Notes: generated from the letters alone by a model not told the origin. A stretch of DNA of 64,000 bases from Planctomycetota bacterium (GCA_965228735.1 OZ245838.1:5600001-5664000), one strand, 5' to 3'. Numbered from the stretch's first letter, positions 21,158 through 37,100 are shown. Numbers and translations are program-made.

Positions 21158-22792
21158 ATGGCCCAGGGACAACCGCTTTCCGCGGCACACGAACTCAACG
21201 ACACGGCACTGCGCGTGCTGATGATCGACGACGATCCGACTGACGCGTATCTCGTGCGCGCGCGGCTGCTCGACGGGATCAAACAGGCCCGTGTTGCGGA
21301 CGAACTCGAGTTCACCAACGCCGAGACGCTGAGCGAGGGGCTCGAGATCGCGACGACCGCGACGTTCGACGTGATCCTGCTCGACCTCGGTCTGCCGGAC
21401 GGCCAGGGGATCGAGAACGTCGAACGCGTGCTCGCTCGGGTGGCTGGCGTGCCGACGATCGTGCTCACGGGGCTCGTCGACGAGAAGGTCGCGATCGAGG
21501 CCCTGCGCATCGGCGCGCAGGACTACGTCGTGAAGGCCGACCTCGGCGGTCGCACGCTCATTCGCGCGGTCGCGTACGCACTCGAGCGCCATCGGCTCGT
21601 GCAGGAGATCGAGCGGGCACGCTGCGAGGACAACGAGGTCAAGGATCGCTTCCTGTCGCACATCTCGCACGAACTGCGCACGCCGCTCACGGCAGTGATG
21701 TCGTTCGCGTCGATCATGCAGGAGGGCATCGCGGGGCCGCTGACCTCCGAGCAGGAGGAGTATCTCGGCATCATCCGCCGCAACGCTGAGCAGCTGAAGC
21801 ACGTGATCACGTCGCTCATGGACGTGACCCGGGCGGACGCGGGCAAGCTGCAGTGTGACCTTCGCATCTCCGACCCGGGGAGTATCGCGCGCGACGCTGC
21901 GGATGCGTTCCGGCAACCCGCGGCGGACGCCGGCATCGGGTTGACGACCATCGTGACTCCGGGGGTTGGGCCGATCGTTGCCGACTCCGACAAGCTCGCG
22001 CAGGTCCTGTCCAACCTGGTCGCGAACGCGATCGAGTCTACGCCCGAGGGCGGCAACATCGAGGTCGGGATCGCGCCCGACCCGGATCGCGGTGAACGGT
22101 TGCGCTTCTCGGTTCGCGATACCGGTTGCGGCATCCCCGAGGGTGAGGTCGAGATGGTCTTCGAGCGCATGCACCAGGTCGGCGAGCCGCGCGACGTGAG
22201 CCGCAACGGCCTCGGCCTCGGACTGCACGTCTGCAAGGAGATCGTGCGCTTGCATGGTGGCGAGATCGGGGTCGAGAGCGCGCTGGGAACGGGCAGCACG
22301 TTCTGGTTCTCGGTCCCGCTCTACTCGTTGAGCACGTTCGTGCAGCGCGTGATCGTCGCGAACGACCGCGTGCAGCCGGGGCTGTGCCTCGTGACCGCGA
22401 AGGTGCGGCCCGAGACCGCAGTCGCTCGGGCCAAGGGGCCCGGGACCGCGGTCGACGAGGTCGCCGGTCTCGCGCGGAAGTGTCTGATCGCGATCCACGA
22501 CGTCGTTCTGCCGATCGGCTCCGGCGCGGACGGTGCCAACGCGGTCTACATCCTCGCGCGCACCGACGAAGCCGGCGGCGGCGCGTTCGTCGACCGATTG
22601 CGCGGTGAGCTCGCGGATCACCCCCGGCTGCTGCGCAACGGATTCGAAGTGGACGTGAGTCTCGACTACCTCGAGTTCGGCGAGCCGCCGAGCGCGATCG
22701 ATCAGGGAGTGCTGGAGATGACGGGTTTCGTCAACGCCTGCATCACGGGCGACGTCGAACAGGAACAGGGGTGCCGCGGGAGTAAGCTCTGA
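21158..22792 (+). CDS. Hybrid sensor kinase (REC-HisKA-HATPase) with a degenerate GGDEF-like tail
   Basis: RBS AGGAGGAGG, REC (LMIDDD, LLDLGLPD, DYVVK), H-box SHELRTPL, N-box QVLSNLVANA, DTGCGI and GLGLGL. Confidence 0.92.
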   Translation: MAQGQPLSAAHELNDTALRVLMIDDDPTDAYLVRARLLDGIKQARVADELEFTNAETLSEGLEIATTATFDVILLDLGLPDGQGIENVERVLARVAGVPTIVLTGLVDEKVAIEALRIGAQDYVVKADLGGRTLIRAVAYALERHRLVQEIERARCEDNEVKDRFLSHISHELRTPLTAVMSFASIMQEGIAGPLTSEQEEYLGIIRRNAEQLKHVITSLMDVTRADAGKLQCDLRISDPGSIARDAADAFRQPAADAGIGLTTIVTPGVGPIVADSDKLAQVLSNLVANAIESTPEGGNIEVGIAPDPDRGERLRFSVRDTGCGIPEGEVEMVFERMHQVGEPRDVSRNGLGLGLHVCKEIVRLHGGEIGVESALGTGSTFWFSVPLYSLSTFVQRVIVANDRVQPGLCLVTAKVRPETAVARAKGPGTAVDEVAGLARKCLIAIHDVVLPIGSGADGANAVYILARTDEAGGGAFVDRLRGELADHPRLLRNGFEVDVSLDYLEFGEPPSAIDQGVLEMTGFVNACITGDVEQEQGCRGSKL

Positions 22793-26563: not shown

Positions 26564-27322
26564 TTACTTCGTCAGTTGGAACGCGAGGTGCAGGGGCTTG
26601 TCGCGCAGCGGCCCGAACCAGTCGGGATCGAGCTCCAGGTGCTCTTCCGTCACGTGCAGTTCCGCGACCAGCGGCATCCGGTCGAACCCGCCGTCGGCGA
26701 GCCCGGACATGTAGTCCTCGACCGTCTTGTGGACGCTGCGGACGCGCACGCTCTTGCCGTCGCGGCGCCAGATCTCGCCCTCGAACTGCACGTCGCGGCC
26801 GGAGTAGTAGCCGCGCTGCTGCGCGTCGAAGTAGAACGGCGCCGTCTTCTGCCCGAGGAAGGCGAGCGAGGGGTGCGGCACCGCGAACACGAAACGCCCG
26901 CCCGGCCGCAGCACGCGGTGGACCTCGGCCATCGTGTGGCGCGTCTGCTCGAGCGACAGGTAGTTGAACAGGAACACCGCGACGACGAGGTCGAACGATT
27001 CGGCGCCGAAGCTGTCGAGGTTGCTCGCGTCGCCGGCGACGTACTCGATGCCGAGCTGTTCGCGGCTCTCGCGCTGCTTGGCCGCTGCGATCATCTCGGT
27101 CGACACGTCGACACCGAGGATGGTGCGCGCGCCGCGCTGCTTGAGCTTGCGGGCGAAGTAGCCTTCACCGCAACCGAGGTCGAGCACGTCCTGACTCTCG
27201 ACCGGCGTGCACCAGTCGAGCAGGAACGGCCGCGCCGTGTAGTCCGACAGCAGCACCGGCTCGGTGCGCTGCCAGTCCCCGCTGGCGCCGTCGTAGATCT
27301 CCTTGGTCGTGGCCATGATCAT
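26564..27322 (-). CDS. Class I SAM-dependent methyltransferase
   Basis: VLDLGCGEG, GVDVS.EMI, GDA, FDLVVAVFLFNY and VLRPGG.FVF.VPHP. The start overlaps the upstream stop (ATGA). Confidence 0.92.
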   Translation of the reverse strand: MIMATTKEIYDGASGDWQRTEPVLLSDYTARPFLLDWCTPVESQDVLDLGCGEGYFARKLKQRGARTILGVDVSTEMIAAAKQRESREQLGIEYVAGDASNLDSFGAESFDLVVAVFLFNYLSLEQTRHTMAEVHRVLRPGGRFVFAVPHPSLAFLGQKTAPFYFDAQQRGYYSGRDVQFEGEIWRRDGKSVRVRSVHKTVEDYMSGLADGGFDRMPLVAELHVTEEHLELDPDWFGPLRDKPLHLAFQLTK

Positions 27323-28143
27323 GCGATCCGTGCCTTCCGCGGCATCGAGGAGCGCGCGCCATCGAGCTTGAAGTAGATGCGATCCCAGAACTCGCAGCGC
27401 AGCTCGAGCGCCTTGAGCATGCCGTTGCGCAGCTCGGCGAGGCCGCCCGGCTCCTTCGCCAGGTCCTTCGCGATCGCCAGCAGGTCCTGCTGGTGCTGAT
27501 CGTCGACGAGGCAGTGCAGCTCGAAGAACACGTAGTCCTCGCGGGCCAGCTCGCCGCACTGGCGAATGCCCTTCAGCAGCTGCTGGTAGACCGGCTTCAC
27601 GATGTGCTCGGTGCCGAGCCCGAGCGCGCCGACGGCTTCGGCGGGAGTCGCGGTGCTGAGGAACTCGAGGAACGAGCTGCGCCACTTCTTCGCCGCTTCC
27701 GTCGGTCGCGCCAGGGTCCGGTCCGTCACGCCGATCGCGTGGCAGAAGCGGCGGAAGAGCACGGGGTGCGGAATACCCATCACCGATTCCGGATCGATTC
27801 CGACCTCGCGCAGCTCCGCGCTCTCCTCCTCGTCGAGGTGACCCTTCTCCTCCTCGAGGTTCTTCAGCAGCAGCAGCCGGTGGTCCTTTCGATCCAGGCG
27901 ACGAATCACCATGCGGAGGTAGTTGGGGAACCACGCGGCGTAGCCGCTGTACTCGTGGGCGTACTGCTGGAGCACGCGAACCGGATCCATGAAGTCGACC
28001 TGGGCGAACGACTTCAGGTACGGATGATGAACGGCCGGGTGCTCGAGCGACTCGCGAACGAGGTCGTCGATCTGACGGTCGAGGTCGGCGGAACGGGCCG
28101 AGCGGGTCGTGGCTGCGGCGTTGAGGGGTTGCAGGCTGGTCAT
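27319..28143 (-). CDS. Heme-oxygenase-like diiron oxidase (iron-containing redox enzyme, CADD/PqqC-like fold)
   Basis: HP...HPY, NLEEEKG, PHPVLFRRF, GTE and FFELHCLVDDQH give a complete E/H/E/H/D/H diiron ligand set. Confidence 0.88.
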   Translation of the reverse strand: MTSLQPLNAAATTRSARSADLDRQIDDLVRESLEHPAVHHPYLKSFAQVDFMDPVRVLQQYAHEYSGYAAWFPNYLRMVIRRLDRKDHRLLLLKNLEEEKGHLDEEESAELREVGIDPESVMGIPHPVLFRRFCHAIGVTDRTLARPTEAAKKWRSSFLEFLSTATPAEAVGALGLGTEHIVKPVYQQLLKGIRQCGELAREDYVFFELHCLVDDQHQQDLLAIAKDLAKEPGGLAELRNGMLKALELRCEFWDRIYFKLDGARSSMPRKARIA

Positions 28144-30922: not shown

Positions 30923-31176
30923 AGACCGGCAGCGCTCTCCCGCCCGGGCGACTCGTCCGTCAGGGAGATTCCCGACCGGCTTGATCCCTGGTCGAAGAAT
31001 TCGACACCCGTGAGACAGCGGCGGACCGCCCCATGGGGTCGCGGGATCCGCACGCCGGTTCGTTGCCAGGGGCACCAGATCGAGCCTCGATCGGCCGGGT
31101 TCTCGGTCAACCGTTCGATATCGCAGCACATCGCGGGACGGGACCCGCGGGGAATCAGAACGGGAGACGAGTGCGC

Positions 31177-31533
31177 ATGGCGATCCAGACCTACCTGGCT
31201 ACGACGTTGGCTGCCGCGCTGCTGGTGGCAGCGCCGATCGATGACATGACGGGGGGGCCCGCGGGGAACCCGTCGATGGCGGTGAATCCGGACCCGCTGA
31301 CGGCCGGCGGTTCCGCGACGGTGACCTACTCGGACCCGAGCCAGGCGAACCAGTCGATCGTCGTCGACATCGATAACGGCATGCAGCGGGGCACGCAGAC
31401 ATCGACGCTAGTCATCGAACTCGATGAGCACGGTGAAGGCAGCGCAGTCTGGGAAGTGCCGACAACTTGGTTCCTGGCCAACTTCAACGCGCCCAACGTT
31501 GCGGAGATCGGTTGCATGATCTCGCACAACTAG
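31177..31533 (+). CDS. Small hypothetical secreted protein (Ig-like)
   Basis: RBS GGGAG, signal peptide and a beta-rich body (VNPDPL.AG..ATVTY). Confidence 0.72.
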   Translation: MAIQTYLATTLAAALLVAAPIDDMTGGPAGNPSMAVNPDPLTAGGSATVTYSDPSQANQSIVVDIDNGMQRGTQTSTLVIELDEHGEGSAVWEVPTTWFLANFNAPNVAEIGCMISHN

Positions 31534-31549
31534 ACGCCGGCTGCTTGGC

Positions 31550-32362
31550 CTATTCGCCGAGCAGCTGCGTGATGTTGTCGAGCGCGATTACCGCGTTGCC
31601 GCGGATCGCGTCGCTCGCGTCGTCGGTGCGCGAAGCGTGCAGCGCTTGCACGCCGTGGTGCATCTGAGCCGAGAGTTGGCGCAACGCATCGAGTCGCGAT
31701 TCGGCGTCCAGCGCCTGGTCGAGCACCAGATCGCCGAGATACGAGTGCATGTCGGGGAAGTCCGTCGGGCTGAACGGTGACGGGCTCGCGACTTCGACCC
31801 GCAGTTCGTCGAGCGCGCGCTGCGCGGCACGCCCCACGCGGTTCGCCTCTGGCGCGACGGTACGCAGCGCCAAGATCGAGCCGATCAGATCGCCAGTGAT
31901 CCGGCGTTGTGCCGTGTTCCGGTCTACCTCAGGACTATCGGCGTCCATGAGGATGTCGACGGCATCCTGATACGGCAGCGTGAACGTCGAGTAGCGAATA
32001 CCGACGTAGGTCGACACCGCGACCACCGTCACCGCCGAGGCGGCGAGGATGAACTTCGGCGCGATCATGAGCGCGGCTGCGGCCGCGACGGCACGCTGCG
32101 CGCGGACCCACCAGCGTGGCTGACCGGTCGGCGGCGTCGCGTTCTCGTTGTCCGTCTCTGCTGCGGTCGCGGCGAGTGCGGCCTGGACGAACTCTTCGAT
32201 CTGCGCGGCTGGCAGCGGTTCGTCGACGACGTCGTCGTCGGAGTCCTCGTCGAGCTGGGCGAGCATGCGCTCGACCTCGGCGAACTCCTCGGCTTCCGCG
32301 GCGACCGCGACGTCGTGGCGCTCGCGCAACCAGCTCCAGAACTCTTCGTCCTTCAGTTCCAT
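31550..32362 (-). CDS. Putative anti-sigma factor (acidic N-terminus, TM segment, helical domain)
   Basis: Overlaps the 3' end of the ECF gene and has a central hydrophobic segment. Confidence 0.7.
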   Translation of the reverse strand: MELKDEEFWSWLRERHDVAVAAEAEEFAEVERMLAQLDEDSDDDVVDEPLPAAQIEEFVQAALAATAAETDNENATPPTGQPRWWVRAQRAVAAAAALMIAPKFILAASAVTVVAVSTYVGIRYSTFTLPYQDAVDILMDADSPEVDRNTAQRRITGDLIGSILALRTVAPEANRVGRAAQRALDELRVEVASPSPFSPTDFPDMHSYLGDLVLDQALDAESRLDALRQLSAQMHHGVQALHASRTDDASDAIRGNAVIALDNITQLLGE

Positions 32363-33003
32363 GAGGGCTGTCCTGTGGTCTCTCCCGGTCCGATGCCCTG
32401 CTCGACGAGCAGGCCCTTCAGGGCCTTGCGCGCCATCGAGCGTGAGGCATAGATCGAGTTCTTGGTGGTCTTGAAGCGGTGCGCGAGTTCGCCGGCGTCG
32501 GCGACGTCGCCCGTGAGCAGGTCCGCTTCGATGATGTTGCGTTGCAGGCGCGGCAGCTTCTTGATGCAGTTCCGCAGCACCTCGAGGAACCGGCTCGGCG
32601 CCGGAGCCTCGTCCGTGTCGGGGTCGTCCGCCACCGCCGTGGCGGCCGCCGTGCCGAGCTCTTCGACCGCTTCGCCGCGGGTCTCCCAGCGCCGGCGTTT
32701 GCGGTCGCGCAGGATCTCCACGCCGGCGTTGCGCGCGATCACGTAGAACCAGGCCCGCAGCGAGCCCTTCGCAGGGTCGTACGAGTCGGCGGCATTCCAG
32801 GCCTTGTAGGTCGCTTTGCTCATTGCGTCGTCGAGTTCTGCTGCGTTGAGGGAGTCGCCGAAGCTACGGACGAGTCCGCCACGAACGCGGGCGCCATGCT
32901 TGGTCAGGAGTTGCTGCAACCCACCCGATTTCCGCTCCACGATGAGGCGGATGATCTCCGCGTCACCGGAGGGCGCGGGGGGGTTGCTGGTCGAGGGGGA
33001 CAT
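32353..33003 (-). CDS. ECF RNA polymerase sigma factor
   Basis: D.EII, DDAM..A..KAW....YDPAKGSLRAWFY.IARN, and region 4 L.RLQRNII.....ELA......S.ARK.L. Confidence 0.88.
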   Translation of the reverse strand: MSPSTSNPPAPSGDAEIIRLIVERKSGGLQQLLTKHGARVRGGLVRSFGDSLNAAELDDAMSKATYKAWNAADSYDPAKGSLRAWFYVIARNAGVEILRDRKRRRWETRGEAVEELGTAAATAVADDPDTDEAPAPSRFLEVLRNCIKKLPRLQRNIIEADLLTGDVADAGELAHRFKTTKNSIYASRSMARKALKGLLVEQGIGPGETTGQPSWN

Positions 33004-33237
33004 CGCGAAGACCGCCGTGGTCTTCTCCTGGAAGGGTTACGCGTGGGCCTTAACGAAGGATGCCACACGCGGCGCGCCCGGCTCGGAACGGGACCGAAAT
33101 GGCGCGTCGTAACCGCATTTTTGGCGGGGACTTACCCATGCCGTCGCCAGATCCGTTCCGGTTGCGGGAAATCCAGATCGCTCTCTTCAGCGTAAACCGC
33201 GCGGATGCCGATCCTGCGATTACGTGAGGTGCGCGCC

Positions 33238-33804
33238 ATGATGGGACACATCAACAATCTGGTCGTCGAGATGGTCCGCGAATCGCTCGGGGCGGACGCG
33301 GTCGAGAAGTTGTTCGCGGAGTCGGGGCTGGAGCACCGGCGCTTTCAGCCCGAGGTCATCTACCCCGAAGAGGATTTCCAGGCGCTGTTCGCCGGGGCCC
33401 AAGCGGTCTTCGGTGTCGATGCTGCCGCGGCGGAGGAGGCGTTCGCCGGCTACTTCATGAAGCGGTCGCCCGAGATGTTCCCCGCGATCTTCGAGCAGGC
33501 GGGCTCGGCGCGCGGACTCATCGAGAAGATCCCGACGATCCACCGGAACTTCCCGGCGTCGGCGTCACAGGGCGATTATCGCGACAAGGTGGAGATCACC
33601 GAGTCGACGCCAGAGCGGATCACGCTGCGCTACATGTCGCCGAACCAACTGTGCGCCACGCTGTGTCACGTCGGCGGCATCTGTCTCGACTTCTTCCATG
33701 AGAAGGGCAAGGTCTACCATCGCTGCTGCGCGAAAGAGGGCGCCGAGTACTGCGAGATCGTCGTCGAGTTCCACGGCAAGAAGGAGCCGGTGGCGTCCGA
33801 ATGA
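33238..33804 (+). CDS. H-NOX (heme NO-binding) domain protein
   Basis: M.G.I, YPEE.F, FAGYF, proximal His (IH), YxS motif and a C-x21-H-x2-C-x7-C zinc site. Confidence 0.88.
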   Translation: MMGHINNLVVEMVRESLGADAVEKLFAESGLEHRRFQPEVIYPEEDFQALFAGAQAVFGVDAAAAEEAFAGYFMKRSPEMFPAIFEQAGSARGLIEKIPTIHRNFPASASQGDYRDKVEITESTPERITLRYMSPNQLCATLCHVGGICLDFFHEKGKVYHRCCAKEGAEYCEIVVEFHGKKEPVASE

Positions 33805-34157
33805 CCCCTGAAGGTCAGGTTCACGGCAGCTCGCCCGCGTACTCGGAGGAGTTCGTGCGGGATCAGGTCCGTCACATCGAGGAGTGTCTGGCCCGTGCGT
33901 TGGCCGGAGACTTCGAGGCCGTCCGGCTGCCGGAGGGCGACACGATGTGGGGGAATCTCGCGATGCACGTCAACGTGGTCATCCACGCGACGCGCGCCGC
34001 ATTGACTCGAGCCGAACGGTTCGAGAAGGAGGCTGCCGCACTGCGGGCGGTATCGCAACCGGACGGAGCGGCCATGGCCGTGCGTTCGATTCGGCGGCCG
34101 GCGCGCGCTGCACGGCCCCAGGACCTCGTGGTGGACGATGAGCGAACGACCCGCTGA
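33801..34157 (+). CDS. Stand-alone soluble HAMP-like protein paralogous to the kinase N-terminus
   Basis: ATGA coupling to the H-NOX gene. IE..L...L.GDF.AV...MWGNLAMHVNVVI. Confidence 0.8.
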   Translation: MTPEGQVHGSSPAYSEEFVRDQVRHIEECLARALAGDFEAVRLPEGDTMWGNLAMHVNVVIHATRAALTRAERFEKEAAALRAVSQPDGAAMAVRSIRRPARAARPQDLVVDDERTTR

Positions 34158-35187
34158 TCCCACCGCCGAGCCGCAGACCGCAGGTTCGGACGTCGGGTAC
34201 ACGCACGATTCCGTGCGGAGCAACATCCGGCAGATCGAGTCCGGGCTCACGAAGGTCCTGTTCGGCGACTACACGGCCGTCGTCAGCCTGGACGACGCGA
34301 ATCCGATGTGGGGCAACCTCGCGATGCACGTGAACGTCGTGATCAACGCGGCGCGCAACGCGATCGCGCGGGCGGAGGCCTCCGAGCGCGAGGCCGCGCT
34401 CGCCCGCGATCGCGCGATCGCAGCGGCCGAGGCCGAATCCAAGTTCCTCACGAACGTCACGCACGAGCTGCGCACGCCGATGGCGTCGATCAAGGCATCG
34501 GCCGAGATCCTGCGCGACTACGGCAAGGGTGACGCCGCGGTGTTCGATGAGTTCCTCGACGTGATGCTCACCGACAGCGATCGCCTCACCCGGCTCATCG
34601 AGAACGTGCTGACCCTGGGCAAGCTGCAGACCGACGAGACGGAGTGGCAGGTCGCCGAGACGCAGCTCGCCGATCTCTGCACCGAGATCGTGGAGTCGAT
34701 GCGCCAGCCTGCGCTCGGGCTCGGACAACACGTTCACCTGACGGTCGGCACCGACCTGCCGCGCTCCTTCCTCGATGCGGAGAGCATCAAGCAGGTCCTC
34801 GTGAACCTGCTGAGCAACGCGATGAAGTTCGGGCCCTCCGAGGCCGTGATCGAGGTCGAGGTCGGCTACGACGCGGCGACCGATCAGCTCGTCGTCGCGG
34901 TGATCGACCGCGGCCCCGGCGTCGCGGAGGCGGAACGCGAGGTGATCTTCCAGCGCTTCGAGCAGGCGACCGAGGACATCCTCACGCAGAAGCCGAACGG
35001 GACGGGCCTCGGCCTCGCGATCGCGAAGGAGATCGTCGATCGCCACGGTGGCCACATCGGAGTCGAGTCGGCGGTCGAGCAGGGCTCCCGCTTCTGGTTC
35101 ACGCTGCCCGTGCTGCGCGAGGCCGCGGCGTTCGATCGCATCCGCGAAGCGACGCCGTCGGAACCAGCAGCGCCATCGGCGTCCTGA
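34138..35187 (+). CDS. Cytoplasmic HAMP-HisKA-HATPase sensor histidine kinase
   Basis: THELRTPM, QVLVNLLSNAMKF, DRGPGV and GTGLGLAI motifs. No TM helix. Confidence 0.93.
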   Translation: MSERPADPTAEPQTAGSDVGYTHDSVRSNIRQIESGLTKVLFGDYTAVVSLDDANPMWGNLAMHVNVVINAARNAIARAEASEREAALARDRAIAAAEAESKFLTNVTHELRTPMASIKASAEILRDYGKGDAAVFDEFLDVMLTDSDRLTRLIENVLTLGKLQTDETEWQVAETQLADLCTEIVESMRQPALGLGQHVHLTVGTDLPRSFLDAESIKQVLVNLLSNAMKFGPSEAVIEVEVGYDAATDQLVVAVIDRGPGVAEAEREVIFQRFEQATEDILTQKPNGTGLGLAIAKEIVDRHGGHIGVESAVEQGSRFWFTLPVLREAAAFDRIREATPSEPAAPSAS

Positions 35188-35253
35188 GTCGAAGCGATCG
35201 ACCGCCATCACCGGCATGTTCACGGTCATGGCGTCCGCCTCGATCGTTCGGCA

Positions 35254-35375
35254 CACCCGTACGGTACCTCACCCGTACGGTACCTGGTTCATGCTGCCGG
35301 CCGCGAGCCCGTTTCCTCGCGGGTGGCGCCTCGACGGCCGGCAGCATGAACCAGGTACCGTACGGCAAGGTACCG
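35254..35375. repeat. REP/MITE-like palindromic element
   Basis: Perfect 31-bp inverted repeat at 35273-35303 and 35335-35365, a tandem 16-bp CACCCGTACGGTACCT at 35254-35285, and outer arms CGGTACCT/AGGTACCG. Confidence 0.85.
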
Positions 35376-35785
35376 ACGAGAACTCGTGGGTGACGATCGA
35401 CGGCTATCGGATGCAATCGGTCGCCGGCGGCGGCCACTGGGGCGGCGGCATGTTCATCAGCAGCCGCGACCACGCCCGCTTCGGTCTCCTCATGCTGCGC
35501 GATGGGCGCTGGGGCGACCGGCAACTGCTGTCGCAGGAGTGGCTCGCGCGGGCCCGGACACCGACGCCTCAGCAACGAACCTACGGCTACATGAACTGGT
35601 TCCTCAACGCCGACGCCGACCACAAGCGGTTCGCGTCGGCGCCGGTCGGCGACGTCTTCTTCCTCGGAGCCGGGACCAACATGATCTGGCTCTGCCCGTC
35701 GCGCGACATGGTCGTCGTCGTGCGCTGGCTCGAGGGCCGGCACGTCGACGCGTTCATCGGCAAAGTGCTCAGCGCGTTCGCGTGA
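35369..35785 (+). pseudogene. 3' fragment of a serine hydrolase (beta-lactamase family)
   Basis: ENSWV.IDG..MQSV.GGGHWGGGMFIS.RD.ARFGLL.L..G.W, YGYMNW and GAG.N.I. There is no N-terminal SxxK, and the frame begins inside the repeat. Confidence 0.75.
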
Positions 35786-36527
35786 ACCGCGGCAGCGGCA
35801 GCAGCATCGGCACGCGGTCGCGGTAGTCGGTGTAGTCGCTGCCGTGGGCCGCGACGAGGCTGCGTTCTTCGATCTGCAGCGCGACGAGCGTGAACGTCGT
35901 GAACGTGAGGCCGAACACGAGACCGCCGTAGGTCATCGTGGGGATCGTCCAGAACGCGGTGAGGAAGCCGAGCATCAGCGGGTGCCGGACGAGGCTGTAG
36001 AGGCCTCGGGCCTTGAACGCGGGTGAGCGTGGCTCCTGACCGCGGAACGCCGCGAGCGTCTGCTTGACGCCGAACAGCTCGAAGTGGTCGATCTGGAACG
36101 ACGACAGCACGACGGTGAGCCAGCCGAGTGCGGAGACCGTCCACATGACCGTGGCCCACGGGCCGTCGATCTGCCAGACCACTTCCGGCAGCGGTCGCCA
36201 CTGCCAGTACATCAGCGCCAGCACGAGGCCGGTCACGATGACGAACGTGCTGCGCTCGATCGGCGCGGGAATGATGCGCGTCCACCGGCGCTTGAACCAG
36301 GCGCGCGCCATGATCCCGTGCTGAATGCCGAACACGAGGATCAGGCCGATGTTGGTCAGCACGGCTTCGAGCATCGGTGACTCGGGGCCACCGCGCGCCA
36401 CGGAGGTGGGCACGAAGACGTCGCTCGTGAAGCCGATGAGGTAGAGGAACGAGGCGTGGAACGCGGCGTAGGCCAGCAGGCCGTAGAACAGGTAGAAGTA
36501 GCGCATGATCGGATCTCGGTCGGACAT
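35769..36527 (-). CDS. mddA: Methanethiol S-methyltransferase (MddA/nurim family)
   Basis: FLYLIGF, F.IQH.IMAR..FK.RW...IP.PIERSTFV, WQWRP, I.HFELFG..Q and LYSLVRHPLMLGF..AFW..P.MT. Confidence 0.88.
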   Translation of the reverse strand: MSDRDPIMRYFYLFYGLLAYAAFHASFLYLIGFTSDVFVPTSVARGGPESPMLEAVLTNIGLILVFGIQHGIMARAWFKRRWTRIIPAPIERSTFVIVTGLVLALMYWQWRPLPEVVWQIDGPWATVMWTVSALGWLTVVLSSFQIDHFELFGVKQTLAAFRGQEPRSPAFKARGLYSLVRHPLMLGFLTAFWTIPTMTYGGLVFGLTFTTFTLVALQIEERSLVAAHGSDYTDYRDRVPMLLPLPRFTRTR

Positions 36528-36584
36528 CCGATTCGGCGCAGGTCAGCTGCGCGACCGGCCAACTCCCGGCCGGTTTTCACGCCG

Positions 36585-37100
36585 CTATTCGGCCGACAGG
36601 CGCTGGTAGAGCCACGCGCGGGCGAACGCCCACTCGCGTCGGACCGTCCGCTCCGAGATGTTCATCGTCGAAGCCGTCGCGACCTCGTCGAGGCCGGCGA
36701 AGAACCGCAGGCGCACGATCTCGGCCGCGCGCGCGTTGACGTCGGCGAGCGCCTGGATCGCCTCGTCGATCGCCATGACCTCGCCGAGGTCCGCCGTCGC
36801 GGCGACCTCGGCCACGTCGAGGGACAGTCGGTTGAGGTCAGGGCCGCCGCGCTTCTTCGCGCCGCGTTTCCTGGCGTGGTCGATGAGGATGCGCCGCATC
36901 GCCTCCGCGGCCATGCCGAAGAAGCGCCCTGGATCCTCGCGCACGCCTTCGAGCCGGTCGCGCATCGCCAGCCAGGCCTCGTTGACGAGAGCCGTCGCCT
37001 GCAGCGTGTGATCGCCGCGCTCACCGGCCATCTGGCGGCGGGCCAGGGCGCGCAACTTGTCGTGCACCTCGGAGAGTTGGGATCGTTCGGTCTCGCTCAC
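36585..37100 (-). CDS. ECF-type sigma factor of the kinase-associated planctomycete/ECF43-like type
   Basis: LR.LA...M.GER..HTLQATALV.EAW, FF..AAEAMRRILIDHAR...A.KRGG and LRFFAGL......R.W.FARAWL. Confidence 0.92.
   Translation of the reverse strand: MSETERSQLSEVHDKLRALARRQMAGERGDHTLQATALVNEAWLAMRDRLEGVREDPGRFFGMAAEAMRRILIDHARKRGAKKRGGPDLNRLSLDVAEVAATADLGEVMAIDEAIQALADVNARAAEIVRLRFFAGLDEVATASTMNISERTVRREWAFARAWLYQRLSAE

Follow-up and report, generated by a model that had tools for sequence, protein, structure and literature searches.

The DNA analysed here, a 64,000-nucleotide stretch from a Planctomycetota bacterium (the window), contains an operon of three genes that encode a stand-alone H-NOX of a divergent subfamily, a small protein copied from the input domain of the neighbouring kinase (hereafter the twin), and a soluble histidine kinase (Table 1). 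As an earlier note on this DNA had stated, all three genes overlap, by an ATGA between H-NOX and twin and by a longer stretch between twin and kinase. The first junction is ATGA in the window and in the congeneric genome G002, and a 1-nt TGATG overlap in the congener G001; the second has the same length in G000, G001 and G002. In each of four sequencing runs (possibly including the source data) a single contig covers the stretch from end to end with 0-1 letters different, and the duplication is therefore not an assembly error. No sigma-70 promoter or terminator was found in 32950-35420, and of 12 sequencing runs listed none was of RNA. A genome search returned 60 receiver domains, the nearest of which lies 11.7 kb from the H-NOX operon; the sole receiver domain in the window, at 21215-21538 (+), sits within a 653-codon open frame at that same distance.

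Table 1. Features of the H-NOX operon and its surroundings, in window coordinates unless a locus is named.
Feature	Coordinates	Strand	Basis or remark
Stand-alone H-NOX, divergent subfamily	33238..33804	+	Pfam HNOB, E 5.6e-16
Twin ORF, 118 aa, copy of the kinase input domain	33801..34157	+	HAMP-fold core followed by a short coiled coil and a tail of low model confidence
Twin helix 1 and its end (residues 16-38)	33846..33914	+	AlphaFold helix 16-34; conservation tables
13-residue motif in the twin, start of HAMP helix 2	33945..33983	+	Heptad register
Twin C-terminal tail, less constrained	34047..34154	+	pLDDT 45-51 for residues 91-118
Soluble histidine kinase, 349 aa	34138..35187	+	Pfam HisKA and HATPase_c
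Kinase input domain (residues 23-75), T/V/F/N family residues intact	34204..34362	+	Motif at 34306-34344
ATGA stop/start overlap, H-NOX/twin, 4 nt	33801..33804	+	
Overlap of twin end and kinase start, 20 nt	34138..34157	+	
Diiron enzyme/SAM methyltransferase region	26564-28131	-	Also L007:13934-15456, L051:14742-16252, L016:2784-4291, L018:259-702

Several features of the surroundings recur in relatives. A divergent ECF sigma factor, a likely anti-sigma factor and a small protein (window 31033-33003) flank the operon in G000, G001, G002 and G301, and a conserved block just upstream of the sigma gene start (intergenic, 33004-33070) is a possible promoter of that gene. Genes for a haem-oxygenase-like diiron enzyme and a SAM methyltransferase lie about 5 kb from H-NOX in G000, G001 and G301, and directly upstream of H-NOX on the same strand are found both genes in L016 and, in L018, where the contig ends, the oxidase. 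Some haem-oxygenase-like diiron enzymes act on N-methylated arginine, releasing NO, and this enzyme and the methyltransferase may make or modify the signal. Just after the kinase (window 35254-35365), a 16-nt tandem repeat leads into an element of 93 bases whose inverted arms, each of 31 nt, pair perfectly; the element matches the genome 99 times, often at one place on both strands, and looks like a MITE or REP-type repeat. In both congeners the kinase is followed by a PF00144 serine-hydrolase gene of about 370 residues (L007:5745-6863; L008:5927-7042), of which an ORF of about 130 codons beside the repeat element (window 35396-35785, +), for which Pfam gave no match, may be a 3' remnant. Beyond the operon in G000 and G001 (window 35769-37100, -) come a gene for an NnrU-like or methyltransferase-like membrane protein, with a weak Pfam match below the cut-off, and another ECF sigma gene.

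The twin aligns with the kinase N-terminus over residues 2-82 against 9-90, with 42 of 82 positions identical (51%, E 5e-18), which confirms the similarity reported in the earlier note and extends it beyond the 65 or so residues given there. That note had also picked out MWGNLAMHVNVVI, identical in twin (33945-33983) and kinase (34306-34344) in spite of five synonymous codon differences; exactly five are present, and the 13-residue motif has no further match elsewhere in the genome. Its view that the flanks have diverged needs qualifying, as the entire 62-residue core is 56% identical, and at an identity of 56-65% a 13-residue identical run is expected by chance at, roughly, 0.03-0.18. Within the motif, W50, L53, V57 and V60 fall on HAMP core positions in the heptad register of Af1503, as tabulated in Table 1 of PMC10731501 and mapped via the profile alignment. 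The motif is altered in two of the three orthologous twins, at two positions in G001 (including H56Q) and at three in G002 (including N52G and L53F). The motif, which the earlier note had proposed as a docking or dimer surface, thus belongs to HAMP helix 2, is mostly dimer core and is not fixed among the twins.

That the shared domain is HAMP-like is borne out by structural matches, profile alignment and a language-model search. The AlphaFold models, which are of monomers only, place in the twin a helix at 16-34, a connector and a helix at 48-85 with high confidence, followed by a disordered tail, and in the kinase (mean pLDDT 91.5) helices at 23-41 and 56-131. The predicted fold is the helix-connector-helix of a HAMP, with two amphipathic helices and a connector of about 14 residues, and the second kinase helix is modelled as unbroken from 56 to 131, through the phospho-accepting His109 of the DHp domain, after which the ATPase domain follows. 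Searched with VIA-align, the six best of 48,161 representative chains all contain HAMP domains (VicK, Af1503 constructs and Aer2; Z 6.9-8.2, values of 7-8 being common for helical models), and the match to Aer2 has a Z of 7.3 and an rmsd of 1.9 over 62 residues. A profile alignment with the 14 ordinary HAMPs of this genome (E 0.001, probability 22%) brings the heptad core pattern and the G-D/G-x-L signature into register, and the ten best family-bearing matches of an Atlas language-model search all belong to the HAMP family or clan. Foldseek returned no match at E <= 0.001, its lowest rmsd being among HAMP entries. Pfam assigns no family to the twin at E 0.1, Pfam HAMP is absent among the 25 families listed for 55 domain members, and the locus falls short of the PF00672 cut-off and is not among the 14 PF00672 matches of the genome; NCBIfam has no family for twin or H-NOX, and a PDB sequence search with the domain profile gave two weak, unrelated rows. 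The domain is therefore a HAMP-fold outlier and not a member of PF00672. The kinase that it heads has no transmembrane segment (maximum 19-residue hydropathy 1.02).

According to the earlier note, characterised H-NOX proteins contact their cognate kinases at the N-terminus or the DHp region. The domain studied here is closely tied to H-NOX genes. At 16 of 16 loci with clear matches (18 loci examined), an H-NOX gene lies directly upstream on the same strand, the weak matches L054 and L055 being without H-NOX; L017, with 159 bases upstream only, was excluded from this count. Two pairs among the 16 loci are duplicated, leaving 14 distinct lineages, or 15 with the window. In the 12 of these 15 that have no twin, H-NOX stands directly before the kinase, as in G301, where the flanking genes are the same and H-NOX overlaps the kinase directly. 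Of 339 genomes of the class, 9 contain the domain and 131 contain H-NOX, and at the 30 best-scoring canonical H-NOX loci of the class the domain was found in none. In the reverse direction, five genomes with weak H-NOX scores yielded a single full member of the subfamily, again with a distant form of the domain after it (L088), and a partial match where a contig ends. The domain-headed kinases have several architectures (HisKA only, PAS, GAF and hybrid), and the window kinase, a soluble HisKA/HATPase protein adjoining H-NOX, is of the HnoK type. The PAS, GAF, HisKA_3 or receiver kinases that carry the domain are P0021, P0023, P0043, P0045-P0050, P0064 and those of L012-L015. Its occurrence is very patchy and resembles that of a mobile cassette: the records are assigned by their sources to several phyla, and in two phyla the domain was found in 1 of 251 genomes and in 1 of 401. 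Since a membrane-less HAMP domain has no sensor of its own, we infer that H-NOX is its input. This HAMP-fold domain without a family model, and its link to a divergent H-NOX subfamily, may prove of greater value than the twin.

The window H-NOX, which scores 59.3 bits (cut-off 25.5) and is alone in the genome in matching HNOB, has S. oneidensis H-NOX (4U9B) as its closest solved relative. A proximal His, a three-Cys zinc site and a two-glycine hinge have been described for H-NOX proteins, and haem-free V. cholerae H-NOX can act through the zinc-cysteine site (PMC7108781). Among 58 homologues of the subfamily, the proximal haem His102, aligned with S. oneidensis His103, is present in 58, and the zinc-site cysteines of the Shewanella/Vibrio type are kept (Cys139 in 58, Cys164 in 57, Cys172 in 58), the fourth zinc ligand being His161 in the window H-NOX and Glu in 55 of 58. 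The YxSxR motif, with its role at the haem propionates, is present at 28 of the 30 canonical H-NOX loci of the class and absent from this subfamily; Tyr132 and Ser134 are kept in 58 of 58, and the Arg position is Asn in 56, as in the window H-NOX, and His in 2. The two-glycine hinge is likewise missing, position 70, the first of the hinge, being Ser or Ala in 58 of 58 and Gly not being among the four commonest residues at position 144. The subfamily has YxSPN in place of YxSxR and an almost invariant His4 (57 of 58). Judged by these columns, the subfamily may be a redox sensor, or may bind haem differently.

The twin itself is old and under selection. The order H-NOX, twin, kinase is retained in both congeners (G001 and G002), as the earlier note's reading would lead one to expect, but within the genomes searched the twin is restricted to a single genus. 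As a single query it had no match in the other 38 relatives, and a word-indexed protein search returned a near-identical copy as the sole match. A profile search of 1.84 billion representatives gave 35 matches, including a fourth, partial twin, P0039 (910-base contig), so that the known twins comprise three complete ones (G000, G001 and G002) and this partial one. P0044, P0053 and P0040, on contigs of 505-715 bases, were taken as fragments and not as twins, P0054 is cut by a contig end, and P0062 and P0066 were left out of the twin check; the close homologues P0003 and P0037 are labelled Planctomycetota by their source records. Two domain copies occur only in the three genomes of this genus among 339 searched in the class, six others having one, and each of four genomes reached through the loci also has one copy. 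No further twin was found in 401 genomes of the phylum, which gave four other single matches, two of them weak, or in 251 and 401 genomes of two other phyla, where the seed genome alone matched; the genomes searched are often incomplete. The four twins come out together on a single branch (support 98/98), nested within their closest kinases, in a tree of 75 columns with many unresolved forks, and by this topology the twin arose through one duplication. The stem branch of the twins has a length of 0.38, with conservation afterwards.

Over the 62-codon core, pN/pS between twins is 0.41, 0.46 and 0.27, with 95% bootstrap intervals below 1, in agreement with the earlier suggestion of purifying selection on an old copy. 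Corrected dN/dS in the same three genomes is 0.17-0.33 for the twin, 0.13-0.16 for the kinase copies and 0.21-0.29 for H-NOX, and dN alone is 0.17-0.29 for twins against 0.08-0.11 for kinase copies. We take these values to mean that the twin is under selection as a protein and changes faster than the domain from which it was copied. Its tail is looser, with a dN/dS of 0.29-0.83, although a short tail motif is common to all four twins.

These data bear on whether the twin acts as a protein at all. It might be a remnant, left when the H-NOX/kinase junction was duplicated in tandem, whose reading frame stays open mainly to bring ribosomes from H-NOX to the start of the kinase and which has little function as a protein. 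The geometry lends itself to such an origin, because the 20-nt twin/kinase overlap resembles the 23-nt H-NOX/kinase overlap of L010, and the tail is possibly a decayed copy of an H-NOX 3' end: local alignment with four close H-NOX 3' ends was not significant (p 0.07-0.37 for protein and 0.07-0.63 for DNA), and an anchored in-frame test, which was post hoc and not independent, was borderline (p 0.08, 0.10 and 0.02). Tail and overlap together hint that a tandem duplication of the junction may have given rise to the twin. The absence of the twin from 12 of 15 lineages implies that the system does not need it, and the loss of family residues described below would also fit relaxed selection. Against little protein function stand the core pN/pS, well below 1, and the codon-position pattern across three species (nucleotide identity 0.71-0.81, 0.84-0.89 and 0.50-0.55 at first, second and third positions), with strong conservation at second positions and about 50% identity at third ones. 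The dN/dS of the twin is moreover close to that of H-NOX, and both differences of the variant P0001 lie in the tail. We therefore regard a mere ribosome carrier as improbable.

A frameshift near the overlap could instead join twin and kinase into a kinase with two HAMP domains. The kinase frame is open for 34-45 codons upstream of its ATG in three genomes, which would permit this, but it is open for 38 codons in the twin-less L010 as well, as expected in GC-rich DNA. Given further that the ATG of the kinase is at the same place in all three genomes, and that no tandem-domain kinase was seen in the first 260 residues of 31 new representatives (a second matched stretch in P0047 being excluded), such recoding is very hard to credit.

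The residues replaced in the twins bear on what the protein may do. We compared 51 kinase-borne copies, the four twins and the 14 ordinary HAMPs of this genome. T31, V33, F35 and N66 are found in 47, 47, 47 and 46 of the 51 kinase copies, respectively, and each in none of the four twins; all four occur together in 42 kinase copies, and at least one is missing in nine. V33 belongs to the core and the other three are predicted to be exposed, and by the heptad register the outward-facing positions are T31, F35, M55, V59, N62 and N66. The last group includes further residues that the kinase copies conserve (M55 in 41, V59 in 48 and N62 in 45 of 51), whereas positions 31, 35, 55, 59 and 62 are variable and mostly polar in the ordinary HAMPs. 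Conserved outer residues of this kind are the pattern expected of a binding surface, and the docking patch proposed below is a candidate put forward from conservation and heptad position. Such a patch would not be universal, since distant H-NOX-adjacent kinases differ (Gly at 35 in L027/L050; Ala33 and Asp35 in L088) and nine copies lack at least one of the four residues.

The window twin carries A31, A33 and A35 where kinases have T, V and F. All four twins have Ala in place of the core V33 and share a new Phe74, and the three complete twins have a one-residue connector deletion. They retain L30, G36, W50, G51, M55, N58, V59, I61, R65 and A67, and part of the putative binding surface is left in them, as M55 and V59 are kept in four of four and N62 in three of four. 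V33A and A64T, both changes in the core, could weaken any dimer.

One way to use such a protein, and the first option in the earlier note, would be as a decoy, a twin homodimer that binds H-NOX, titrates it away from the kinase and so sets the threshold of the response. The tight linkage of the domain to H-NOX, the translational coupling of twin to H-NOX in all three genomes, and a largely kept helix 2, including the conserved and predicted-exposed M55, V59 and N62, would all suit this role. A decoy needs an intact docking surface, whereas a subunit poison needs only the dimer core, and T31, F35 and N66 are replaced in four of four twins while their partner kinases keep them. As the most strongly conserved of the residues predicted to be exposed are replaced, this pattern fits poisoning better, and we favour heterodimerisation over titration of H-NOX; the faster evolution of twins relative to kinase copies also tells against a decoy, which we consider unlikely.

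The twin might also have acquired a new partner, serving as an adaptor for a third protein through F74 and the tail motif, with or without the kinase. The features that the twins share among themselves (A33, F74, the connector deletion and the tail motif), and the stem branch followed by conservation, are what such an acquisition could leave behind, and an output-less HAMP as a site of protein interaction is known from the account in bioRxiv 10.64898/2026.05.25.727664. Yet no gene that could encode such a partner comes and goes with the twin, the neighbours in G301, which has no twin, being the same, and the tail is weakly constrained and of low confidence in the model, so that an adaptor role seems to us improbable as well.

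The reading that we prefer, with confidence somewhat below an even chance, is that the twin is a truncated paralogue that pairs with the HAMP domain of the kinase and damps the kinase or uncouples it from H-NOX. It keeps the dimer module of the kinase without the output domain. By this mechanism, the domain at the head of membrane-less kinases encoded directly behind one H-NOX subfamily would be the site at which H-NOX acts, its second helix running, in the predicted structure, unbroken into the DHp helix. H-NOX would bind the HAMP dimer at its lower end, on a conserved and exposed patch for which T31 and F35 of helix 1 with V59, N62 and N66 of helix 2 are the candidates, and thereby set kinase activity. 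Having kept the greater part of the dimer core and a coiled coil of about 20 residues, but with T31, F35, N66 and the core V33 replaced, a twin made from the same overlapping operon would form mixed HAMP bundles with the kinase, and these, having a damaged H-NOX site and no second catalytic arm, would have a higher threshold or a lower output. Counting against mixed bundles, a stable DHp dimer may resist subunit exchange. A wider picture, in which a so far undescribed H-NOX subfamily, possibly sensing redox state through its zinc and cysteines in place of NO through a canonical haem pocket, grips a HAMP docking domain of about 60 residues grafted on many types of kinase in several phyla, and in which the twin is a HAMP-only antikinase acting by subunit poisoning, is more speculative, and we hold it to be rather doubtful as a whole.

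In sum, the twin is real, conserved, selected and narrow in range, known among the genomes searched from one uncultured genus only, and is a variation on H-NOX/kinase signalling. If it inhibits by heterodimerising, it would exemplify a simple way to tune a kinase, namely to duplicate the input HAMP and drop the enzyme, and in the literature searched no earlier case was found of a two-component kinase regulated by a HAMP-only antikinase. The twin substitutions provide a natural set pointing to contact residues. A 2022 review records no high-resolution structure of an H-NOX with a signalling partner (PMC8738867, section 5). Because the docking candidate is very small and feeds straight into the DHp helix, it offers a minimal model of H-NOX-kinase docking, and the structure of such a complex, at about 250 residues per half, could be within reach.

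Pairs of H-NOX and kinase are well known (PMC8738867; PMC12329717). Nevertheless, the earlier note knew of no three-part design among described H-NOX systems, and in the largely open-access literature searched we likewise found no description of an H-NOX operon with a free HAMP copy; 'stand-alone HAMP' together with 'histidine kinase' returned 0 papers in that literature. The operon shares with the H-NOX/HnoK pairs of Shewanella oneidensis, Vibrio cholerae and Caulobacter a stand-alone H-NOX whose gene adjoins and overlaps that of the kinase, as these are described in PMC8738867 and PMC12329717, and it keeps the proximal His and three-Cys zinc site described in PMC7108781. It differs in that the kinase begins with a membrane-less HAMP-fold domain, of which a free copy lies between the genes, in that the H-NOX has neither the Arg of YxSxR nor the first Gly of the hinge (each 0 of 58), and in that no receiver domain lies within 11 kb. 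With the HAMPs of Af1503, Aer2 (poly-HAMP) and VicK, the domain has in common the helix-connector-helix arrangement, the G-D ending helix 1, a matching heptad spacing and, in the window kinase, continuity with the DHp domain. Unlike those, it is preceded by no transmembrane helix and no sensor, the Pro and Glu of the usual signature are missing, and outer positions that are normally polar hold conserved hydrophobic residues; the twin, moreover, carries no input domain and no output domain.

Three further systems bear on the proposed action of the twin. The Cache_heme-HAMP receptor of Pseudomonas azotoformans, which acts with a Ser/Thr kinase, is NO-related and has an output-less HAMP that docks a protein (bioRxiv 10.64898/2026.05.25.727664), but it is a membrane receptor with periplasmic haem c and, as described there, involves no H-NOX, no histidine kinase and no duplicated domain. 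TrlR of Agrobacterium is a truncated TraR paralogue that forms inactive heterodimers (PMC13043044); as described there, it too keeps the dimer-forming input part and has lost the output part, and the twin would work in like manner. Fold and pathway are unrelated, and the action of TrlR is demonstrated where that of the twin is proposed. A looser likeness is offered by RetS, which inhibits GacS by substituting a heterodimer interface for a homodimer one (PMC12148439), much as the twin would inhibit its kinase; RetS, in that description, is itself a complete sensor kinase and acts on the DHp domain, whereas the candidate inhibitor here is a 13-kDa protein consisting of a HAMP domain only.
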